Shown here: in pieces, positions 1,374 to 59,295 of the stretch | Position numbering within the stretch: position 1 is the first letter of the stretch | Layout of the letters: each line of letters opens with the position of its first letter | NCBI GenBank assembly: GCA_963743885.1 | Contig: CAVURJ010000001.1 | Coordinates: 438,321-502,320 of the forward strand | DNA from: Candidatus Moraniibacteriota bacterium | GTDB lineage: Bacteria > Patescibacteriota > Minisyncoccia > Moranbacterales > UBA1568 | DNA: 64,000 bases | Direction of reading: 5' to 3' | The notes under the pieces: generated by a model | Database searches by the model: none | Seen by the model: the letters and a program-made list of their open reading frames with translations, nothing else | Told to the model about the DNA's origin: nothing | Made by a program: the position numbers and the translations under genes

Positions 1374-4300
1374 ATGGAATCCAGAGACAATCTTTCAAAT
1401 TTCATCAAGTATTGTTTGGGGTATATCAACCTGACTCGTCGGCAGGGGCTTTCTGTTGGCCGGAAAGAGGCTGTTGTTGTCCCTGAAGAATATTTAAGTC
1501 TTGAACATCTTCTTGATGGTGATTTGGATGGGAATATGGGAGAGGTAATTTCTCTCGAAACATTTCATCAGTATGCACCGAAGGATGTCCCCGAAGAGAT
1601 GAGGGGCGCTTACAAACTGGAAAAACAGTTGGCTGAGAAGATAGAAAATATCTATAACAAACATCGTAATGACCAGTTCAGGAAACAGGTCCTTCTTCAG
1701 TTTGGGTTTTTCGAGGTAGAGTTGCCAGTTGAAGAGGGGGTTGCTCCGGCTGGAGATGATGAACAATCCGTTCAGTCGCAGCTCCCTCTTATGCCAGAGG
1801 AGCCAAAAATAAAAGAGCCGAAGCGTGAGAAATATCCGATATTCACTATCCCGGTAAGGATAGAAAAGGATGATGACGGGAAATATGTCCTGTATACAGT
1901 GGATACGGAGTTCCAAGTAAATACGGGGGGTCTTGAAGCTATTTTGGATGAATCCTCGTACTATCAGCTTCTGGAAGAAATCGGGAAATACGAGATGGGA
2001 GAGAGGCTTACGTTGCCGCTTAGCAATCTTGAGATTTTTCGTGAAATCTGGGAAAAAATCGAATCATATCTGAAGTTGGGGGATGCTGTTTTTGATGGAG
2101 ATTCATTCAAGCTGAATGAAATGAATTTGGTCCTCAGTGCGAAAGCAAACTTCTTTTTGTCGGAGGATTTGAGAAAGCTTTTTGAATTTTCGGAAGACGA
2201 GCTTAAGGGTACGGCGCTTGCGACATGGATTAACAATGATGGGCTTGCTAGTAGTGATGAATCTGATGAAGAGGAGAGTTCTTCCGGATTGTATTTCCCG
2301 TTTTCATATGACAAGTATCAATTGCGGATTCTTTCTTTATTGAAAAACAAGGCGTTCATAGTTGAGGGTCCGCCTGGCACCGGAAAGTCGCAGACCATCT
2401 CTAACTTGCTGTGCCATTTGGCGGCAAGTGGAAAAAAAGTTCTTTTCGTCAGCCAGAAAGCGCAGGCGTTAAAGGTTGTAAAGGATAAGCTCAAATCGTT
2501 GAATATCGATTATCTTTTTGGGTATGTTCCGAACCCCGCATCGAATCAATTGAGCGAAATTGACGAGTTTGATGGAATCGCACCGCAACTGCTGGCCATG
2601 AGCTCCCATGTGAGCAAGCTGCAGGACGGTTCGTATGATGGGCTGAGAAAGCGAGAGCCTATCAGTCTTGAGTCGGCCGCAGAGAAGGCAGTCAGATTAA
2701 CGAAAAATATCAATGAGTCGATTGGGGTTCAGAGAGAAGTTGTTAGGCTTAATGAAGAGCTGGTGTCTTTGAATGAGTACGAGATGTCGATAACTGACCT
2801 TGATGCTTTTAAGGAAAGTTTTGGGGACAGTAATTGGAAGCAGATTGTCGCCCTGAAGAAGCGCATCGAGACATTGGTTGAGGGATTGAAGAGGTACAGT
2901 GCCTCAGAATCCAAGAAAGATATGGACGGGGTGTTTGCTGATTTAGACTTTGATGATGCGAAATATTCGTCTGCAATACGGGCGATAAAGGAGGATGTCT
3001 CGCAGACTGCTTATGATAGGCATTCAAAAGTCGTTAGAACAATAAATACGACTGCAAGAAATTTGAGATTAAGAAAGGAACGAGCCGCTTTGCCGAGAGA
3101 AATTATCGATTATATTGACGAGAAATTAAAATCCGATATTTCACGTAGAGAGGCTGTCGATATATTGAGTCCCTTGTTGGATTATTGTGAGTTTTTTGAG
3201 GTGAAAAAGCTTTTGGAGGAGGATAGAGAGAAGCTTGAGGTGTCATTGAATAAGTGCGGCGTATCCAAAGAGGAATTCCAGATAATTAGTGACATGATAT
3301 CGGAAACATCTTCAGAGAAGCTTGAAGAAATAAAAGGGAAGATTGTAAGGGTTCAAGAGATTAAGTCTGAGTTAGAGAAGCTTCAGATTGAAGATTCTCA
3401 GGAGTATTCAAAACAGCTGACAGATCTTTTGGGGGCATCCGATAAGCGCGTAGCTATCTATATACAGAATATCTTAAATAAGAATATCTTTGATAAAAGC
3501 AAAAGCGTAGCTGTAATCCAGAAGATTAGAAGGTTAGCAAAAAGCCTGGGTAAGTCGAAAACTGCATTTAAGACATTTGACCGTTTGCGACGTGACCCGG
3601 ACAATTTTGACACGATACTCGACCTTATCCCGATATGGATAATGGAGCTTGATGATGCAAGCAGAATCATACCGCTTGAGGCGGGGATATTCGATTATGT
3701 GATTCTTGATGAAGCTTCACAGTGCAATGTTGCGTATACCCTTCCGGTGATGTTTAGAAGCAAGCAGGCGATATTTGTTGGTGATAGTGAGCAGATGCGT
3801 GATAGCACGATTATGTTCAAGGCGAACAAGTCGTTTGATGAACTTGCTCGTCGATATCGTATACCGGAAGAATTACAGATAAAAAGTACTGGCGAAACGG
3901 TTCAGTCGGTTCTTGATATTGCCTATCTAAGAGGATTTCAGAGCAGGACACTTACATATCACTACCGCTCTCCAAAGGAGCTGATTGGATTCAGCAACAA
4001 CTACTTTTACACTCCGAAAGGGAAGGAGCTGATATCTCTTAATAGTCATTACCTTACATACAAGGATACCAATAGAATCATGCTCGTTCATGAGGTTGAA
4101 GTGGACTGGGGTCAGGAGATATCTGATTCTTCAAATATAGCTGAGGCAAAGCGCATATTGGAGCTCTTTAGGGAATTACGAAGCGATGAGAGATATAAGG
4201 ATAAGTCTATCGGTATCCTGACGTTTTTCAATGCTCAAGCATCGTGCATACGTGACTTATTTGAAAGTGAAGGATTAAAGGAAGAAGATGATAATTACGT

Positions 4301-6475: not shown

Positions 6476-8086
6476 ATGATAAATAAAATTCGTATTGTTA
6501 ATTTTCGTTCGATACAAAATTTAGAGATTCACCCGCACAATCTTTGCGTATTGATAGGTCCAAATAGCTCTGGAAAAACAAACGTGCTGAAGGCGTTAGA
6601 TATTTTGCTTGGAGAGACATATCCAACTGAGCGAGCTTTTAGCAAGGATGATTTTTATGGGAGAAATTCAAATTTGGAAATTCTAATACAAGTGTGGTTT
6701 AAAGAGCCGCTTGAAGCTTGTAAATTGACATCTGTAGCTACAAGGAGAAAGGAGCAGTGTTTGATATCGAGCTTGAGACTCACACATACTAAGAATGATA
6801 ACGAATTTTTTCAGACAAAATTTATTGCTATTGACGTTGATGGAAATGAGTACTGGGCGTCTGGAGATGTTAGAGAAAAAGTGAATTTCATATATATACC
6901 ATCCGAGAGGAATTTAGAGAAGCAAATGTCGGTCAGTCAATGGTCTTTGTTGGGGAGAATACTCCGTAAGATTGATGAGAATTTCAGAAAAAATAGCCTT
7001 GGAGACGGCCCTAGTGAGATGGAGGAGGATTTTAGAGAGTCCATGAGTGAGCCGAAGAGAATTCTTGAAGCGGAATTGCCGAATGGCATGTTGAGTTATG
7101 CGAAATTTAAGCAGGTATTTACGGGTATTTGTAAGGAAAATGCAAATGGGTTAGCGAATGATTTTGACCTTGATTTGGAAATTTATGACCCGCTGTTTTA
7201 TTATAAGACGATTCAGCTGCTTGGGAGAGAGGAGATGGGGACCTTTAACATCCATGAGCTTGGGTCGGGGGTGCAAAACCTGGTGTTATTATCGCTGTTT
7301 AGGACTTATGCAAAATTAATGAAGAACAAAGCTGTTCTGGCTATCGAAGAGCCGGAAATCTATTTATATCCACAGGCGCAGAGGCAGCTTTATTCGAACT
7401 TTATTGGCATGGCGTATCCAGAATCTGGTAGTCAGGATGGAACCCAAATAATTTATACGACTCACAATCCAAACTTTGTAGATGCCACTAGGGCGAATGA
7501 GGTTGAAATTCTTCAGAAAAGCGCTTCAAGAGGGACTTGTTTGCTTCCAAAGAGTGAGTATGTAACATCGGAGAGGTCTGAGCAGGATAGGTTTAAGACG
7601 TATGCTCATTTTAATACTGAGAGGAACGAGATATTCTTTGCAAAGAAAGTGCTTCTGGTTGAAGGGGACTCTGACAAGATTATGTGGTCGACTCTTCTTG
7701 GTGAAAAATGGGAAATCCTTATAAATAAAGAAGGTATATCTATTATTGAATGCGGAGGGAAAACCGGAGTTCTGTATTTTATTGGCGTGTGCAGATTTAT
7801 GGGGATAGATTATTTCGCTATATGGGACGCAGATAATGGAGATGATGAGGTTAATGATAGACACGGGCTTTTTAGTGCGACTATCAGTGAAGGAAGGGGA
7901 TTGGAAATTCCTGGTAACCTCGAACAATTTCTATCAAGTAAATTCGATGCAGTTAGTTACCCGCAATTTGTATTTTCACAAAGCAATAAGATTGAACATG
8001 CTTTTGAGTGGGCTAACTCAGTTAATATTTCGGATATCCCAGAAGAATTTCTTTCTATTAAAAATTTTTTCATGTTGGCGGACTGA
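6476..8086 (+). CDS. OLD-family ATP-dependent endonuclease (N-terminal ABC-type ATPase plus C-terminal TOPRIM)
   Basis: Walker A LIGPNSSGKTN; Walker B-like LAIEEPEIYLYPQAQ; TOPRIM signature LLVEGDSDKIMW...IIECGGKTGV. Confidence 0.85.
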   Translation: MINKIRIVNFRSIQNLEIHPHNLCVLIGPNSSGKTNVLKALDILLGETYPTERAFSKDDFYGRNSNLEILIQVWFKEPLEACKLTSVATRRKEQCLISSLRLTHTKNDNEFFQTKFIAIDVDGNEYWASGDVREKVNFIYIPSERNLEKQMSVSQWSLLGRILRKIDENFRKNSLGDGPSEMEEDFRESMSEPKRILEAELPNGMLSYAKFKQVFTGICKENANGLANDFDLDLEIYDPLFYYKTIQLLGREEMGTFNIHELGSGVQNLVLLSLFRTYAKLMKNKAVLAIEEPEIYLYPQAQRQLYSNFIGMAYPESGSQDGTQIIYTTHNPNFVDATRANEVEILQKSASRGTCLLPKSEYVTSERSEQDRFKTYAHFNTERNEIFFAKKVLLVEGDSDKIMWSTLLGEKWEILINKEGISIIECGGKTGVLYFIGVCRFMGIDYFAIWDADNGDDEVNDRHGLFSATISEGRGLEIPGNLEQFLSSKFDAVSYPQFVFSQSNKIEHAFEWANSVNISDIPEEFLSIKNFFMLAD

Positions 8087-55933: not shown

Positions 55934-56005
55934 GCGCTCGTCGTATAACGGATAAGACATCTCCCTCCGAAGGAGAAAACGCAGGTTCGACTCCTGCCGA
56001 GCGCA
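55934..56005 (+). tRNA. tRNA-Arg (anticodon CCG)
   Basis: Acceptor GCGCTCG/CGAGCGC; anticodon stem-loop TCTCC-CTCCGAA-GGAGA; T-arm GCAGGTTCGACTCCTGC; D-stem has one mismatch. Confidence 0.75.
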
Positions 56006-56180
56006 CAAAGTAAGTGAGGAGCATGCCAACTGCTTGGCATGCGCCAGGAGGAGAAAGTCGGAGCCCTGTCCGCGATAGCGGACGGCGAGACGGGGTCGAG
56101 AGGCTGTGAAAGCAGAACTCGTGACCGATTCCTGCCGAGCACACATGAACGAAGTGAATGGGCCGAGGAGCGAGTAAACT

Positions 56181-56352: not shown

Positions 56353-56412
56353 GCAAAGTAAGCGAAGAAAAAAAGACTTCCCCGCATAGGGAAGTCTTTT
56401 TTGTAAACGATG

Positions 56413-56485
56413 TGCGCCCGGCAAGAATCGGACTTACGACCTTCTGGACCGCAACCAGACGCTCTATCCACTGAGCTACGGGCGC
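56413..56485 (-). tRNA. tRNA-Arg (anticodon GCG as read from the sequence)
   Basis: Reverse complement folds: acceptor GCGCCCG/CGGGCGC; D-arm TAGCTCAGTGGATAGAGCG; anticodon stem-loop TCTGG-TTGCGGT-CCAGA; T-arm GTAAGTCCGATTCTTGC. Confidence 0.75.
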
Positions 56486-57144: not shown

Positions 57145-57274
57145 GGTTTTTTATCAAATTCTTTTGTTATGATAGCACGATGTTTGATTCTGCGATACAA
57201 GGTATGTATTGATGCAAATTTGGAATACTGATACAGTGTTTCCGTGAGCCTCTCTCGTTTATGAAGAGGTTTTA

Positions 57275-57334
57275 GGAAGCGTGGCCCCTTAGCCCAGGAC
57301 CAGTCTGCCTTGGGCGGGGAGTGGTTGAAAGCAA
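57275..57334 (+). repeat. pseudo 5' copy of tRNA-Ser(TGA): GGAAGCGTGGCC, a 31-nt palindromic insert, then GGAGTGGTTGAAAGCAA
   Basis: The first 12 nt are identical to the real tRNA 5' end at 57401; the insert is related to the one in the tRNA-Ser(GCT) pseudo-copy at 58568-58596. Confidence 0.6.
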
Positions 57335-57400
57335 TGGTTTTGCCGTCGCCCTTGGCGGGGTCCCGCTCAAGCGGGAAAAACTGTGCTATCTTGTTAAAGT

Positions 57401-57490
57401 GGAAGCGTGGCCGAGTGGTTGAAGGCAACAGTCTTGAAAACTGTCATACCCGAAAGGGTATCGTGAGTTCGAATCTCACCGCTTCCGCCA
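57401..57490 (+). tRNA. tRNA-Ser (anticodon TGA), long variable arm, CCA encoded
   Basis: GGAAGCG acceptor; anticodon loop CTTGAAA; variable arm CATACCCGAAAGGGTATC; T-arm GTGAGTTCGAATCTCAC; CGCTTCC-G-CCA. Confidence 0.85.
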
Positions 57491-57706
57491 GAAAAATAAT
57501 CCAGCCTTGTTGGTGTTTGGGACAAATGTCGAGAGTCTCTTGTTTGATGATGAGGGAGTGTTGTTTGGTTAATCCTGCATTAGTTACCCCTCTCCCTTGG
57601 CAATTTTGTGATTTTGTGGTATCATACTTTGTTCTCGTTGGGAGTTCTTTAGTGGCCAGCTGGAGCATGGTATCCGTTTGTTTGAGGTCTGTTCATAGGA
57701 GGAAAG

Positions 57707-57907
57707 GTGATGACTGTACGGGAAACCAGTCCAGGGACGTTCTATTGCGGCATATGCAGCAGGATCGTTTCTCCGCAGCACGACTGTCGCCCTGGAACCA
57801 CGCATAAGGGGTTTGATCATGGAAGTTCAGGGGTAGACAAATGCAGGAATTGCGGGGCCGTTGTTGGTCTCGGTTGCCAGCGTTGCCGCTATTGCGGGAA
57901 TACATGA
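57707..57907 (+). CDS. small Cys-rich (double CxxC) protein, 66 aa
   Basis: AGGAGG 7 nt upstream of the ATG; motifs CGICS...HDC and CRNCG...CQRCRYCG. Confidence 0.5.
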   Translation: MMTVRETSPGTFYCGICSRIVSPQHDCRPGTTHKGFDHGSSGVDKCRNCGAVVGLGCQRCRYCGNT

Positions 57908-58137
57908 GGCTATGCAATGCATTGGCCAAAGATGAGTGCGGAATCGTACTCATCTTTTTTTGTGTCCGCATAAAAAGATTTGCTTTTTTGGCTGTTTTGT
58001 GCTAGTTTGGAATCGTTGTAAGTTTTTCTCTCTGGAGTTTCGCTGACCGCGGAAGGAGTTGCCAAGCTCGGACCAGTCAAGCAGTGCCAGGTAAGGAGAA
58101 GGTCACCTTACACGGTAAATCAAGTTAGCAGTTCGAT

Positions 58138-58446
58138 ATGGCAACAAAGCTGTACGTCGGAGGCGTCGCTTACGCGTCGACCGAAGACACACTCCGCGAT
58201 GCGTTCGCGCAGGCCGGTAGCGTCGTTTCTGCCAAGATCATCATCGACAAGATGACAGGCCGCTCACGCGGTTTCGCCTTCGTCGAGATGACCACAGAGG
58301 AAGATGCCCAGAAGGCAATCGACATGTGGAATGGCAAGGAACTCGACGGCCGCACGCTGACCGTCAATGAAGCTCGCCCGCTCGAGGATCGTCCTCCGCG
58401 CCAGGGTGGCTACAACAACGGTGGTCAGGGTGGCAATCGTTGGTAG
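58138..58446 (+). CDS. RRM-domain RNA-binding protein with a Gly-rich tail
   Basis: RNP-2 KLYVGG and RNP-1 RGFAFVEM; C-terminal RQGGYNNGGQGGNRW; terminator at 58461-58489. Confidence 0.85.
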   Translation: MATKLYVGGVAYASTEDTLRDAFAQAGSVVSAKIIIDKMTGRSRGFAFVEMTTEEDAQKAIDMWNGKELDGRTLTVNEARPLEDRPPRQGGYNNGGQGGNRW

Positions 58447-58555
58447 TATTTGGCAAAAAAGCAGTCCCGCAAGGGACTGCTTTTGTTTTGGTGAGGATGG
58501 ATCGGATTCCTTGATTTCGATAAAAAAAGCTGATAGCATGAAGCGTATGCATATT

Positions 58556-58609
58556 GGAAAGGTGGCCCCAGCCCAAGGCTGGTCCGTCTTGGGCGGAGAG
58601 TGGCTGAAG
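58556..58609 (+). repeat. pseudo 5' copy of tRNA-Ser(GCT): GGAAAGGTGGCC, a 29-nt palindromic insert, then AGAGTGGCTGAAG
   Basis: The first 12 nt are identical to the real tRNA at 58882; overlaps the start region of the GIY-YIG gene. Confidence 0.6.
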
Positions 58610-58617
58610 TACGGCTT

Positions 58618-58878
58618 ATGTATTACGTCTACATACTCTGGAGCGAGAGAAATGGGCGATTGTATAAAGGCGTGACAAATGACCTCAAAAGAAGATTGAA
58701 GGAGCATAATGGTGGATCAGTGCCATTTACAAAAAGCCTTATTCCGTGGAAACTGATATATTATGAGGTGTTTTCTGAAAAAGAAGATGCAACAAGGGAG
58801 GAGAAGTTTTTGAAGAGCGGAAAAGGACGAGAGCGAATTCAATGGTTATTGAGAGGTGTTTTGGAAAAATTTGGATAG
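58618..58878 (+). CDS. GIY-YIG nuclease superfamily protein (YhbQ/UPF0213-like); in-frame GTG at 58600 also possible
   Basis: GIY-YIG core MYYVYILWSERNGRLYKGVTNDLKRRLKEHN; stop 3 nt upstream of tRNA-Ser(GCT). Confidence 0.75.
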   Translation: MYYVYILWSERNGRLYKGVTNDLKRRLKEHNGGSVPFTKSLIPWKLIYYEVFSEKEDATREEKFLKSGKGRERIQWLLRGVLEKFG

Positions 58879-58881
58879 TTT

Positions 58882-58972
58882 GGAAAGGTGGCCGAGCGGC
58901 TGAAGGCGGCGGATTGCTAATCCGTTATAGGGGGTTAAACCCCTATCGAGGGTTCGAATCCCTCCCTTTCCG
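58882..58972 (+). tRNA. tRNA-Ser (anticodon GCT), long variable arm
   Basis: Acceptor GGAAAGG/CCTTTCC; anticodon loop TTGCTAA; variable arm TATAGGGGGTTAAACCCCTATCG; T-arm GAGGGTTCGAATCCCTC; discriminator G. Confidence 0.85.
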
Positions 58973-59295
58973 CAGTGAACGGAGTGAACGAAGAAAAGGA
59001 GGAAGCCAACTGCTTGGCTTCCGAGAGGGATGAGAAAGACGGAGCGATGTTTCGCGAGCACGCGAAACCGCGAGTCGGGGTCGCGGAAATGTACGAGCGT
59101 CGGCGAGTACATTATCTGTGACCGAATCCTTTTTTGAACCGAAAGAATACAGGACCCCTGATGGGGTCCTGTATTCTTTTTGGTATGGGAATGGAAGGGA
59201 AGGATTCGAACGGGCAGGAACGATTCGCCAGCTGGCGGAGAAACTGGCGAGCGTCGATGGATGCGGGCGATCCTTCAAAAAAAGTAAGCGGGTAT

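Follow-up and report, generated by a model that had tools for sequence, protein, structure and literature searches.

A GIY-YIG nuclease gene and a double-hairpin module at duplicated tRNA 5′ ends: a candidate selfish cassette in tRNA genes of Patescibacteria

Interrupted pseudo-copies upstream of two tRNA-Ser genes

The two serine tRNA genes located in a 64,000-nucleotide (nt) stretch of the genome of a Candidatus Moraniibacteriota bacterium (GenBank assembly GCA_963743885.1, contig CAVURJ010000001.1, positions 438,321 to 502,320; referred to here as the window, and numbered from its first letter) are each preceded by a partial copy of their own 5′ end, which is interrupted by a short hairpin-forming insert; at one of them, a small GIY-YIG nuclease gene separates this pseudo-copy from the intact tRNA gene. 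We will refer to the surroundings of tRNA-Ser(TGA) and tRNA-Ser(GCT) as locus A and locus B, respectively, to the insert as module M, and to the tRNA-derived stretches at either side of it as segments a and b; all the features described for both loci lie on the forward strand.

At locus B, segment a (GGAAAGGTGGCC, 58556-58567) reproduces nt 1-12 of tRNA-Ser(GCT) at 12 of 12 positions. It is followed by a 30-nt copy of M (58568-58597), which reads CCAGCC-CAA-GGCTGG and then TCCGTC-TTG-GGCGGA, that is, two hairpins with a single G-T mismatch in the second one. Segment b (GAGTGGCTGAAG, 58598-58609) resumes the tRNA with its D-loop sequence and matches nt 13-24 at 11 of 12 positions, with a T replacing the C of the tRNA. 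The GIY-YIG gene, encoding an 86-residue protein of the UPF0213/Slx1 type (Pfam PF01541), occupies positions 58618-58878 including the stop codon, and the intact tRNA-Ser(GCT), which would be the regenerated copy, begins after a gap of 3 nt (58882-58973; ARAGORN; Rfam tRNA model, 59.5 bits).

Locus A presents the same arrangement in a longer and decayed form. Segment a (GGAAGCGTGGCC, 57275-57286) is identical to nt 1-12 of tRNA-Ser(TGA) (12/12), and is followed by a degenerate, 32-nt M (57287-57318), whose first hairpin is broken and whose second one is weakened with respect to the consensus of 55 copies described below, and by segment b (57319-57342), matching tRNA nt 13-36 at 20 of 24 positions. 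A second decayed, GC-rich hairpin insert (57343-57375) falls between the second and third anticodon bases; intact M modules occupy the equivalent anticodon site (CTTG|AAAAC) in five related loci (L054, L055, L074, L075 and L011). The last segment (57376-57389) corresponds to tRNA nt 37-50 (11/14), and the intact tRNA-Ser(TGA) lies at 57401-57490 (ARAGORN; Rfam tRNA model, 61.8 bits), with no open reading frame (ORF) at this locus. An earlier note on this DNA, made without database searches, had described the two 12-nt copies, the related insert of about 30 nt followed by D-loop sequence, and the nuclease gene abutting the tRNA, all of which were confirmed; its limits for pseudo-copy A (57275-57334), however, left out the second insert and the matches continuing to 57389.

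Where the two tRNA-Ser genes of the window differ, each pseudo-copy agrees with its own downstream tRNA, and the insert motif shared by loci A and B is restricted to them within the 64 kb, shuffled sequences giving an expectation of 0. At neither pseudo-copy did Rfam return an RNA family or an intron match (E ≤ 1); a self-splicing tRNA intron was discarded on the latter result and on the presence of a complete tRNA after the ORF, with no 3′ exon continuing the fragment. The locus A copy of M, having lost its first hairpin, is consistent with locus A being older than locus B, and it seems probable that the former is an ORF-less, decaying relic and the latter an intact copy of one selfish cassette residing in tRNA genes.

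A strong terminator (58457-58484) closes the preceding gene, which encodes an RNA recognition motif (RRM) protein, and locus B therefore requires a promoter of its own. A promoter-like sequence, TTGATT-17 nt-TAGCAT (58511-58539), lies 16 nt 5′ of pseudo-copy B, and another, TTGATG-17 nt-TACAGT (57209-57237), 5′ of pseudo-copy A. Both candidates fall below the threshold of the consensus promoter scan, which missed them, and are proposed on the basis of their position and of their conservation with L001, a stretch syntenic with the window in which TTGATA-17 nt-TACAGT occupies the equivalent site, immediately 5′ of an uninterrupted tRNA-Ser(TGA). Extended −10 boxes are also found 10-25 nt upstream of the pseudo-copy in many related loci. 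Given the upstream terminator, the lack of room for a promoter before the ORF and the tRNA starting 3 nt after it, fragment, M, ORF and tRNA would be expected on a single transcript, from which the complete tRNA would presumably be freed by RNase P.

The GIY-YIG protein family and its tRNA partners

The window protein belongs to the GIY-YIG superfamily (PF01541, 63 bits against a cut-off of 22.6; E = 3e-17). Residues Y5, Y16, G18, R26, H30 and E61/E62 are invariant in 32 family sequences and include the expected catalytic residues; every one of them is present in the window protein, for which activity is predicted from sequence. At E ≤ 1e-3, 877 homologues were recovered, the best of them 80-87% identical and labelled Moranbacteria, and all the close ones belonging to the Candidate Phyla Radiation (CPR, or Patescibacteria). 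Profile comparison against the PDB retrieved 1zg2 (UPF0213, BH0048; 1.4e-10) and 1ywl (EF2693; 3.5e-7), together with weak matches to SLX1 (7wme and 6seh, ~0.008), and by these comparisons the protein is best described as a bare catalytic domain, a stand-alone GIY-YIG of the UPF0213 (YhbQ-like)/Slx1 type. The classic homing endonuclease imagined in the earlier note was thereby not borne out: an I-TevI-type enzyme was rejected, as the 86 residues hold PF01541 only, with no DNA-binding domain, and score 16.5 bits against a cut-off of 56 for TIGR01453, the group I intron endonuclease model. PADLOC gave no defence-system match for the protein, and an exact look-up of its sequence, with either an ATG or a GTG start, found no record.

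A survey of the GIY-YIG superfamily from 2006 placed such proteins in the Slx1 cluster; it reported fusions or links of prokaryotic Slx1-like proteins with COG4123 and with a TrmH-like tRNA methyltransferase, and considered that they might function in RNA metabolism (PMC1564403). These fusions and links with TrmH-like and COG4123 methyltransferases are the best support for a first alternative, in which the protein is a housekeeping, tRNA-directed enzyme: a UPF0213-type GIY-YIG would act on tRNA or pre-tRNA from an operon with class II tRNAs, and the tRNA fragment and hairpins would form a substrate-mimic leader regulating or processing its own mRNA. Strong conservation of the family, with an intact ORF in nearly all loci, also speaks for it, as do the predominance of Ser and Tyr among the partner tRNAs and the location of M 5-30 nt 5′ of the ATG, where the 3′ arm of M followed by GAG resembles a ribosome-binding site.

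The genomic context of the family was analysed in 80 CPR loci with a relative of the window protein, taking one genome per species. In 74 of them, a same-strand tRNA starts −10 to +121 nt after the GIY-YIG stop codon, mostly at 5-30 nt. Serine tRNAs account for 64 of these 74 (Ser(GCT) 26, Ser(TGA) 17, Ser(GGA) 11 and Ser(CGA) 10), the remainder being Tyr (5), Asp (2), Cys, Gly and Thr (1 each). As for the six loci with no tRNA, four meet the contig end at most 65 nt past the stop codon, and the other two (L076 and L082) hold a second GIY-YIG copy between the ORF and the tRNA. The order 5′ tRNA fragment, M, a few nt of tRNA, ORF and intact tRNA is found at almost every locus, with the ATG 5-30 nt after the preceding elements; this layout occurs at the Ser(GCT/TGA/GGA/CGA), Tyr, Cys, Asp, Thr, Glu and Trp tRNA genes, in the case of Glu and Trp with more divergent GIY-YIG proteins.

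A contiguous M together with a downstream tRNA is present in 66 loci; in 44 of these the fragment 5′ of M is identical to the 5′ end of the tRNA, and in 57 it shows at most 2 mismatches. The earlier note had regarded a conserved, YhbQ-like housekeeping gene combined with insignificant 12-nt identities as the outcome that would tell against it; the protein does prove to be of the YhbQ-like clade, which agrees in part with that outcome. M is situated after tRNA nt 12 (22 loci), 13 (18), 8 (7) or 14 (3), or inside the anticodon (5), and also at 20-21 and 27, and the tRNA sequence picks up again 3′ of M in nearly all of these loci. Segment a follows the local tRNA, and segment b often has a generic sequence (GAGTGG in place of the GAGCGG of the tRNA, also in the window), a combination that fits a resident left arm joined to an imported remainder.

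Related loci differ in the presence, state and number of these units. L001, syntenic with the window at 76-85% nt identity, has both tRNA-Ser genes and no fragment, M or GIY-YIG gene, its tRNA-Ser(GCT) segment being inverted; it provides the empty counterpart that the earlier note had advised to look for in relatives. ORF-less copies resembling locus A were found in L011, L079, L044 and L005, in agreement with the previous suggestion that locus A is a degenerate copy; L079 carries two stacked ORF-less pseudo-copies with M 5′ of tRNA-Arg(CCG), and in L025 and L081 stacked relics and decayed GIY-YIG ORF fragments lie 5′ of intact copies. L076 contains two identical 323-nt units (fragment, M, leader and ORF) in tandem and its sister L077 only one, the GIY-YIG stop codon lying inside the tRNA in both. 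Furthermore, GIY-YIG proteins sharing 81-87% identity are distributed over three isoacceptor genes, Ser(GCT), Ser(CGA) and Ser(GGA); according to a rough tree, the window protein groups with those of L003-L006, located at Ser(CGA) and Ser(GGA), and other clades also mix tRNA types.

This evidence makes a housekeeping role of the cassette as a whole unlikely in our opinion. The element is missing in the syntenic L001, Cys, Asp, Thr, Glu and Trp tRNAs are also partners, and the peculiarities of the acceptor strand of the downstream tRNA, whichever it may be, are reproduced in the fragment; ORF-less and stacked relics, and an exact tandem duplication, resemble insertion and decay rather than regulation, and the Watson-Crick-only pairing of M and its occurrence within protein genes, both detailed below, point to a DNA-level element.

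Genes for tRNAs are well known as integration sites, and the elements integrated there are bordered by partial tRNA duplicates, which raises the question of a remnant of an integrase-type island or phage. The cassette shares with tRNA-targeting islands and prophages the insertion into a tRNA gene, the regeneration of an intact tRNA and the partial copy left behind. Those elements, however, span kilobases, encode a tyrosine or serine integrase and duplicate the 3′ end, whereas here the 5′ end is duplicated, the whole unit measures only ~320 nt and neither the window region nor the related loci contain an integrase; a true M is found at one distinct viral locus only (L103, L105), and the cassette in no viral contig. 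An integrase-type origin is consequently highly improbable.

The earlier proposal of a tRNA-targeting mobile element that regenerates the tRNA 5′ end gains from the recurrence of the layout, the empty L001, the tandem copy and the switching among tRNAs; the cleavage and homing it invoked are retained below as presumed steps. On balance, we favour a selfish cassette resident in the tRNA genes of CPR bacteria, which would rebuild the 5′ end of the tRNA it enters and of which locus B would be an intact and locus A a relic representative.

The double-hairpin module and its dispersal

M is exactly 30 nt long and consists of two adjacent hairpins, each of the form YCNGCC-NNN-GGCNGR (6-bp stem, 3-nt loop); its halves are inverted copies of each other, and both strands read nearly alike. 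Across 55 distinct copies the two-hairpin pairing reaches 99.8%, and 108 cells have changed on both sides, as against 39 ± 4.6 in shuffles, none out of 500 of which attained 108. G-U pairs occupy 3 of 660 stem cells, and folding of the consensus gives a pair of hairpins (−11.9 kcal/mol, z = −4.3). This Watson-Crick-only, strand-symmetric pairing suggests a structure at the DNA level. A single long palindrome or hairpin, as which the insert had initially been described, was discarded: it shows no covariation, and its central pair is unpaired in 33 of the 55 copies. Different GC-rich double hairpins (e.g., TCCTCC-NNN-GGAGGA) are found at the equivalent position in divergent GIY-YIG subfamilies, at tRNA-Glu (L071, ~4070-4200), tRNA-Ser(CGA) (L082, ~3265-3400) and tRNA-Trp (L065, minus strand, ~850-980), and such subfamily-specific pairs argue that the GIY-YIG protein and the hairpins belong together.

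M also occurs on its own. Its dispersal was studied in metagenome stretches chosen by the M pattern (at least 120 matches, L107-L226), and the counts that follow refer to the matches listed. Stop-free stretches of at least 200 codons enclose 62 of 112 copies, and the in-frame M adds 10 codons, mostly in the frame SAQGG(P/S)ASG(W/G) (metagenome contigs such as L212, L155, L199 and L139). Host genes encode PNPase, a ClpB-type ATPase, RpoB, RecG, BipA, MurA, MiaB, tRNA synthetases, DnaJ and DnaK. The M residues of PNPase are a clean 9-residue loop insertion with respect to solved PNPases, and those of BipA map to a short variable loop, which exceeds that of the solved protein by about 3 residues; one DnaJ gene carries three M copies, and two of four DnaK genes carry M, at differing positions. 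The differing M content of the DnaJ and DnaK genes and the PNPase insertion suggest that M moves independently, and M alone is, as judged from this distribution, a mobile mini-insertion. Dispersed copies show a flank preference, T-Y|R-A, with T at −2 in 87 of 109 and A at +2 in 83 of 109, and no target-site duplication around them. The idea that M enters the loops of existing hairpins, which arose from its D-loop, anticodon-loop and nested sites, was unsupported for the dispersed copies, whose flank complementarity is 2.55 (shuffles, 2.38 ± 0.10), with 3 stems of at least 6 pairs for 2.2 expected.

These dispersed copies bear on another alternative, according to which nuclease and hairpins are unrelated neighbours: M would be a general miniature palindromic element moved by other means, collecting in functionless tRNA fragments that arose from local duplication beside a GIY-YIG gene, and the nuclease would have no connection with it. 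Away from contig ends, copies far from a GIY-YIG gene or tRNA indeed outnumber those near one (70 vs 8), their T-Y|R-A flanks are unlike the tRNA sites, and M takes several positions in the fragments, being even nested in itself. Against this, a strict M is located at most 80 nt upstream of ~70 of the 80 GIY-YIG genes, most of the others having a degenerate or split M, when the background density of M in those loci is ~1 per 40 kb; all the pseudo-copies seen contained a hairpin module; the divergent subfamilies have their own double hairpins in the equivalent place; and among ORFs within 2 kb of the listed M copies, GIY-YIG is the most recurrent family (10 loci), the others that recur being M-carrying host genes, so that no other enzyme family recurs near M. 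We accordingly regard this alternative as improbable.

A phage origin was also considered and rejected, as the M pattern matched 24 viral contigs, none of which had a GIY-YIG gene or a tRNA, and the matches were almost without exception plain terminator hairpins. The one distinct viral locus with a true M (L103:3346 and L105:8294; GC content 0.69) lies far from any CPR context.

Proposed route of spread and related systems

According to the selfish-cassette reading, the mobile unit would comprise, in this order, the 30-bp M, a few nt of tRNA, the minimal Slx1/UPF0213-type GIY-YIG gene and a new tRNA 5′ part. The window cassette would have entered after tRNA nt 12, and, the insertion lying in the 5′ part of the tRNA, the resident promoter and the first 12 tRNA nt would now head the nuclease mRNA. 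Spread would most likely proceed via break-stimulated, homing-like recombination, in which homology would be supplied on the left by the displaced 5′ fragment and on the right by the highly conserved tRNA; with such arms, the same tRNA gene, or one like it, would be open to the cassette in any genome, and a second event at an occupied tRNA gene would yield tandem units. The nuclease would most plausibly recognise M, by shape and not by sequence.

A more specific, and rather speculative, version of this scheme is DNA-shape-guided homing. Whenever an M-bearing allele pairs with an M-less homologue after DNA uptake, as when a strand with segment a, M and segment b pairs with an intact tRNA gene, M would be forced out as a two-hairpin branch. 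The Slx1-like nuclease might recognise this looped-out M and nick the opposite, M-less strand at the branch, after which M and, in the case of tRNA genes, the nuclease gene behind it would be copied to the recipient during repair. This would explain why tRNA sequence is always kept on both sides of M, how an 86-residue protein with no DNA-binding domain could serve many unrelated sites, and why M is found in housekeeping genes and hairpin pairs are specific to subfamilies.

Several points weigh against the selfish-cassette reading. In other bacteria, no mobility is known for members of the UPF0213/YhbQ clade, which show links with tRNA methyltransferases (PMC1564403); the window protein has no DNA-binding domain, and 60-87% identity across CPR classes is unusually high conservation for a selfish nuclease. 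The prevalence of listed M copies far from any GIY-YIG gene or tRNA, and their flank preference, which is absent from the tRNA sites, are also adverse to it. The regenerated tRNA retains the presumed target sequence, which leaves self-immunity unaccounted for, and a left arm of 12 nt is very short for RecA-type recombination. Lastly, in L074 (3366-3466) and L019 (4100-4232) an extra M lies 3′ of the regenerated tRNA; no more than 7-8 nt of tRNA stand before it, and the complete 3′ part of a tRNA-Ser comes after it, a configuration that the simple model does not predict. It is as though an insertion with an M copy at either end had interrupted a resident tRNA, which suggests that M-bounded or mirror-image events also take place.

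Some known systems resemble the cassette in part. The Seg and Mob genes of phage T4 are free-standing GIY-YIG homing genes, SegB being encoded in the T4 tRNA cluster. They have in common with the cassette an intronless GIY-YIG gene beside or within a conserved gene, break repair presumed to co-convert the flanks, and variable presence at a conserved target (PMC2790892, PMC2988022, PMC13096335), which is observed here as well (no unit in L001, two in L076 and one in L077); unlike the bare 86-residue domain on a bacterial chromosome, with its tRNA 5′ duplication and double hairpin, they are phage-borne, possess a DNA-binding domain and are not known to cause target duplication. Insertions in CPR rRNA genes encode GIY-YIG proteins, are not group I or II introns, are reported to be sparse and are not thought to home (PMC11270868); they coincide with the cassette in the bacterial group and in the non-intron location of a GIY-YIG gene in a stable-RNA gene, but no tRNA association, duplication or hairpin module has been described for them (PMC11270868).

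As regards the hairpins, REP/REPIN-RAYT systems (repetitive extragenic palindromes and their associated transposases) likewise combine dispersed short palindromic doublets with a gene always beside such a doublet; RAYTs, however, are HUH/Y1 enzymes and REPs intergenic, in contrast to a GIY-YIG protein, a 30-bp M that is often in frame and a location at tRNA genes. Rickettsia palindromic elements (RPEs) are also palindromic selfish DNA in frame in housekeeping proteins, a trait that M displays in other CPR contigs and not in the window; they measure ~100-150 bp and have no associated nuclease gene, whereas M amounts to 10 codons. In Allomyces mitochondria, a mobile endonuclease ORF in atp6, studied by Paquin, Laforest and Lang, reportedly brings a copy of the target-gene end and leaves the resident end as a pseudo-fragment, and GC-rich double-hairpin elements are said to be dispersed in the same genome, with no established link to the enzyme. 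That case differs in concerning a fungal organelle, a protein gene and duplication of the 3′ end. Literature searches retrieved no account of the 30-bp element or of an association between GIY-YIG genes and tRNA genes in CPR bacteria, the nearest report being that of the rRNA-gene insertions (PMC11270868); the mechanism has a fair chance of being new.

If correct, the proposal would describe a selfish cassette, widespread in CPR bacteria, that settles in essential, single-copy tRNA genes and spares their function, rebuilding the tRNA 5′ end as a mirror image of what integrase islands do at the 3′ end. It would provide a first biological role for a large GIY-YIG clade of ‘unknown function’ (UPF0213, bacterial Slx1-like), and would tie a UPF0213-type protein to a 30-bp element adding 10 codons in PNPase, DnaJ, DnaK, ClpB-type ATPases and tRNA synthetases. 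It bears on genome annotation (pseudo-tRNA fragments, false N-terminal extensions and odd 10-residue inserts) and on how very small genomes tolerate selfish DNA, and could point to a compact nuclease recognising DNA shape.

Some further observations concern the vicinity of the window tRNA-Ser genes. The RRM-protein gene with its leader and terminator (58017-58489) is 99% identical to L001, when the other shared synteny stays at 76-85%, which suggests a recent exchange ending ~65 nt upstream of locus B; an exact metagenome search with the terminator of this gene, aimed at further empty or occupied alleles of locus B, gave no match. About 55 nt 3′ of tRNA-Ser(GCT), an element of ~100 nt (GGGATGAGAAAGACGG...GAGTCGGGGTCG...GTGACCGAATCC, 59027-59129) was noticed, with no Rfam match at E ≤ 1. 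Further copies occur in L018 (3549-3658), where a copy of the tRNA 3′ end follows the element, and on the minus strand of L001 (~7370-7517), a stretch with no GIY-YIG gene. It looks like a 3′ tRNA pseudo-fragment with a T-loop insert, mirroring the 5′ pseudo-copies. Copies of the tRNA 3′ tail, which were sought with each locus's own tail because a generic T-arm search gave too much noise, were found downstream of the intact tRNA-Ser in 11 related loci, mostly ~130-250 nt away. Just 5′ of both tRNA-Ser genes, the window carries tRNA-Arg(CCG) (55934-56006) and tRNA-Arg(GCG) (56412-56485), and an Arg(GCG)/Ser tRNA neighbourhood is common to many of the related loci.

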